A DNA stretch of 48,579 bases from Candidatus Cloacimonadota bacterium (GTDB lineage: Bacteria; Cloacimonadota; Cloacimonadia; Cloacimonadales; TCS61), in the NCBI GenBank assembly GCA_029932755.1, contig JAOZPK010000001.1, positions 1 through 48,579 of the forward strand, read 5' to 3'; not shown here. A report on this DNA, generated by a model with database tools, continues below.

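Follow-up and report, generated by a model that had tools for sequence, protein, structure and literature searches.

Two types of XDH-family enzyme accompany the four-gene core of HyuA, HyuB, an opine-dehydrogenase-like protein (ODH) and an OTC-like carbamoyltransferase. In the molybdenum subunit encoded in the window (18643-20919), an Asp/Lys pair replaces Glu802/Arg880 of xanthine dehydrogenase, and this pair is strictly conserved in the orthologs of eight related metagenomic loci (L020, L027, L030, L033, L042, L065, L070 and L073). A second type with the canonical Glu/Arg pair is found beside the same core in L012, L013 and L022. Immediately upstream of the XDH genes, 20 related loci encode a tungsten-type aldehyde:ferredoxin oxidoreductase (AFOR) together with a small polyferredoxin (for example L014 18217-20438, L070 and L073); the window lacks this enzyme.

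Downstream of the OTC-like gene, a complete selenoprotein reductase of the glycine/sarcosine (Grd) type was detected in L014 (12165-18205), L096-L098, L023, L044, L054, L076 and L077. The gene set covers GrdA and GrdE, thioredoxin, a GrdCD fusion and a GrdB that is split at the UGA codon. The subunits that determine substrate specificity are closest to sarcosine reductase but score far under the cutoffs, and the enzyme may therefore be a reductase of new specificity. Another module is inserted into the cluster in L049, L053, L055, L056, L059 and L087, where it lies between the OTC-like gene and the AFOR gene, and in L084. It consists of a corrinoid protein, an MtmB-family protein, an MttB-family methyltransferase and an SbnB-like dehydrogenase of the OCD family, which hints at a methylamine or an N-methylated intermediate. 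The MtmB-family protein of this module is full-length without an interrupting stop codon and shows no sign of a pyrrolysine codon.

The related locus L022 encodes three further enzymes:

1158-4703, 1181-aa protein in which a molybdopterin oxidoreductase is fused to Pyr_redox_2, a 2Fe-2S domain and a DPD-type 4Fe-4S domain
11150-12124, D-2-hydroxyacid dehydrogenase
19165-20673, aldehyde dehydrogenase

The fusion, located between the OTC-like gene and a carbamate kinase gene, shares 32% identity across 541 aa with YgfK of the reductive uric-acid pathway of E. coli. Upstream of the Lachnospiraceae cluster in L012 (1955-5638), three genes may be linked to cofactor maturation; their products are a member of the CMD family, a radical-SAM/DUF3641 protein and a fusion of CofC, DUF2064 and glycosyltransferase-2.

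Outside the island, Por_Secre_tail sorting domains of type-9 secretion were found in window proteins at 36037-37236 and 40715-43495 and in a protein of the locus L099 (652-1053); a 926-aa metallophosphoesterase is among the proteins bearing this domain. Protein cluster members that share at least 90% identity with window proteins carry the name Candidatus Cloacimonadota MAG, and the host therefore probably belongs to Cloacimonadota. A 1019-aa protein at 45370-48429 consists mostly of ankyrin repeats, which is uncommon for a free-living bacterium.

Directly beyond the island terminator lie three genes (26887-31002):

26887-27927, - strand, Fic/DOC protein carrying a Penicillinase_R-like HTH at its N terminus
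29307-30203, - strand, AbiEii toxin
30190-31002, - strand, ORF without Pfam hit, overlapping and upstream of the AbiEii gene

The last ORF occupies the position of an AbiEi antitoxin relative to the toxin gene. Together with a step in GC content from 0.39-0.44 in the island to 0.30-0.36 outside, these three adjoining genes suggest that the island was acquired horizontally.
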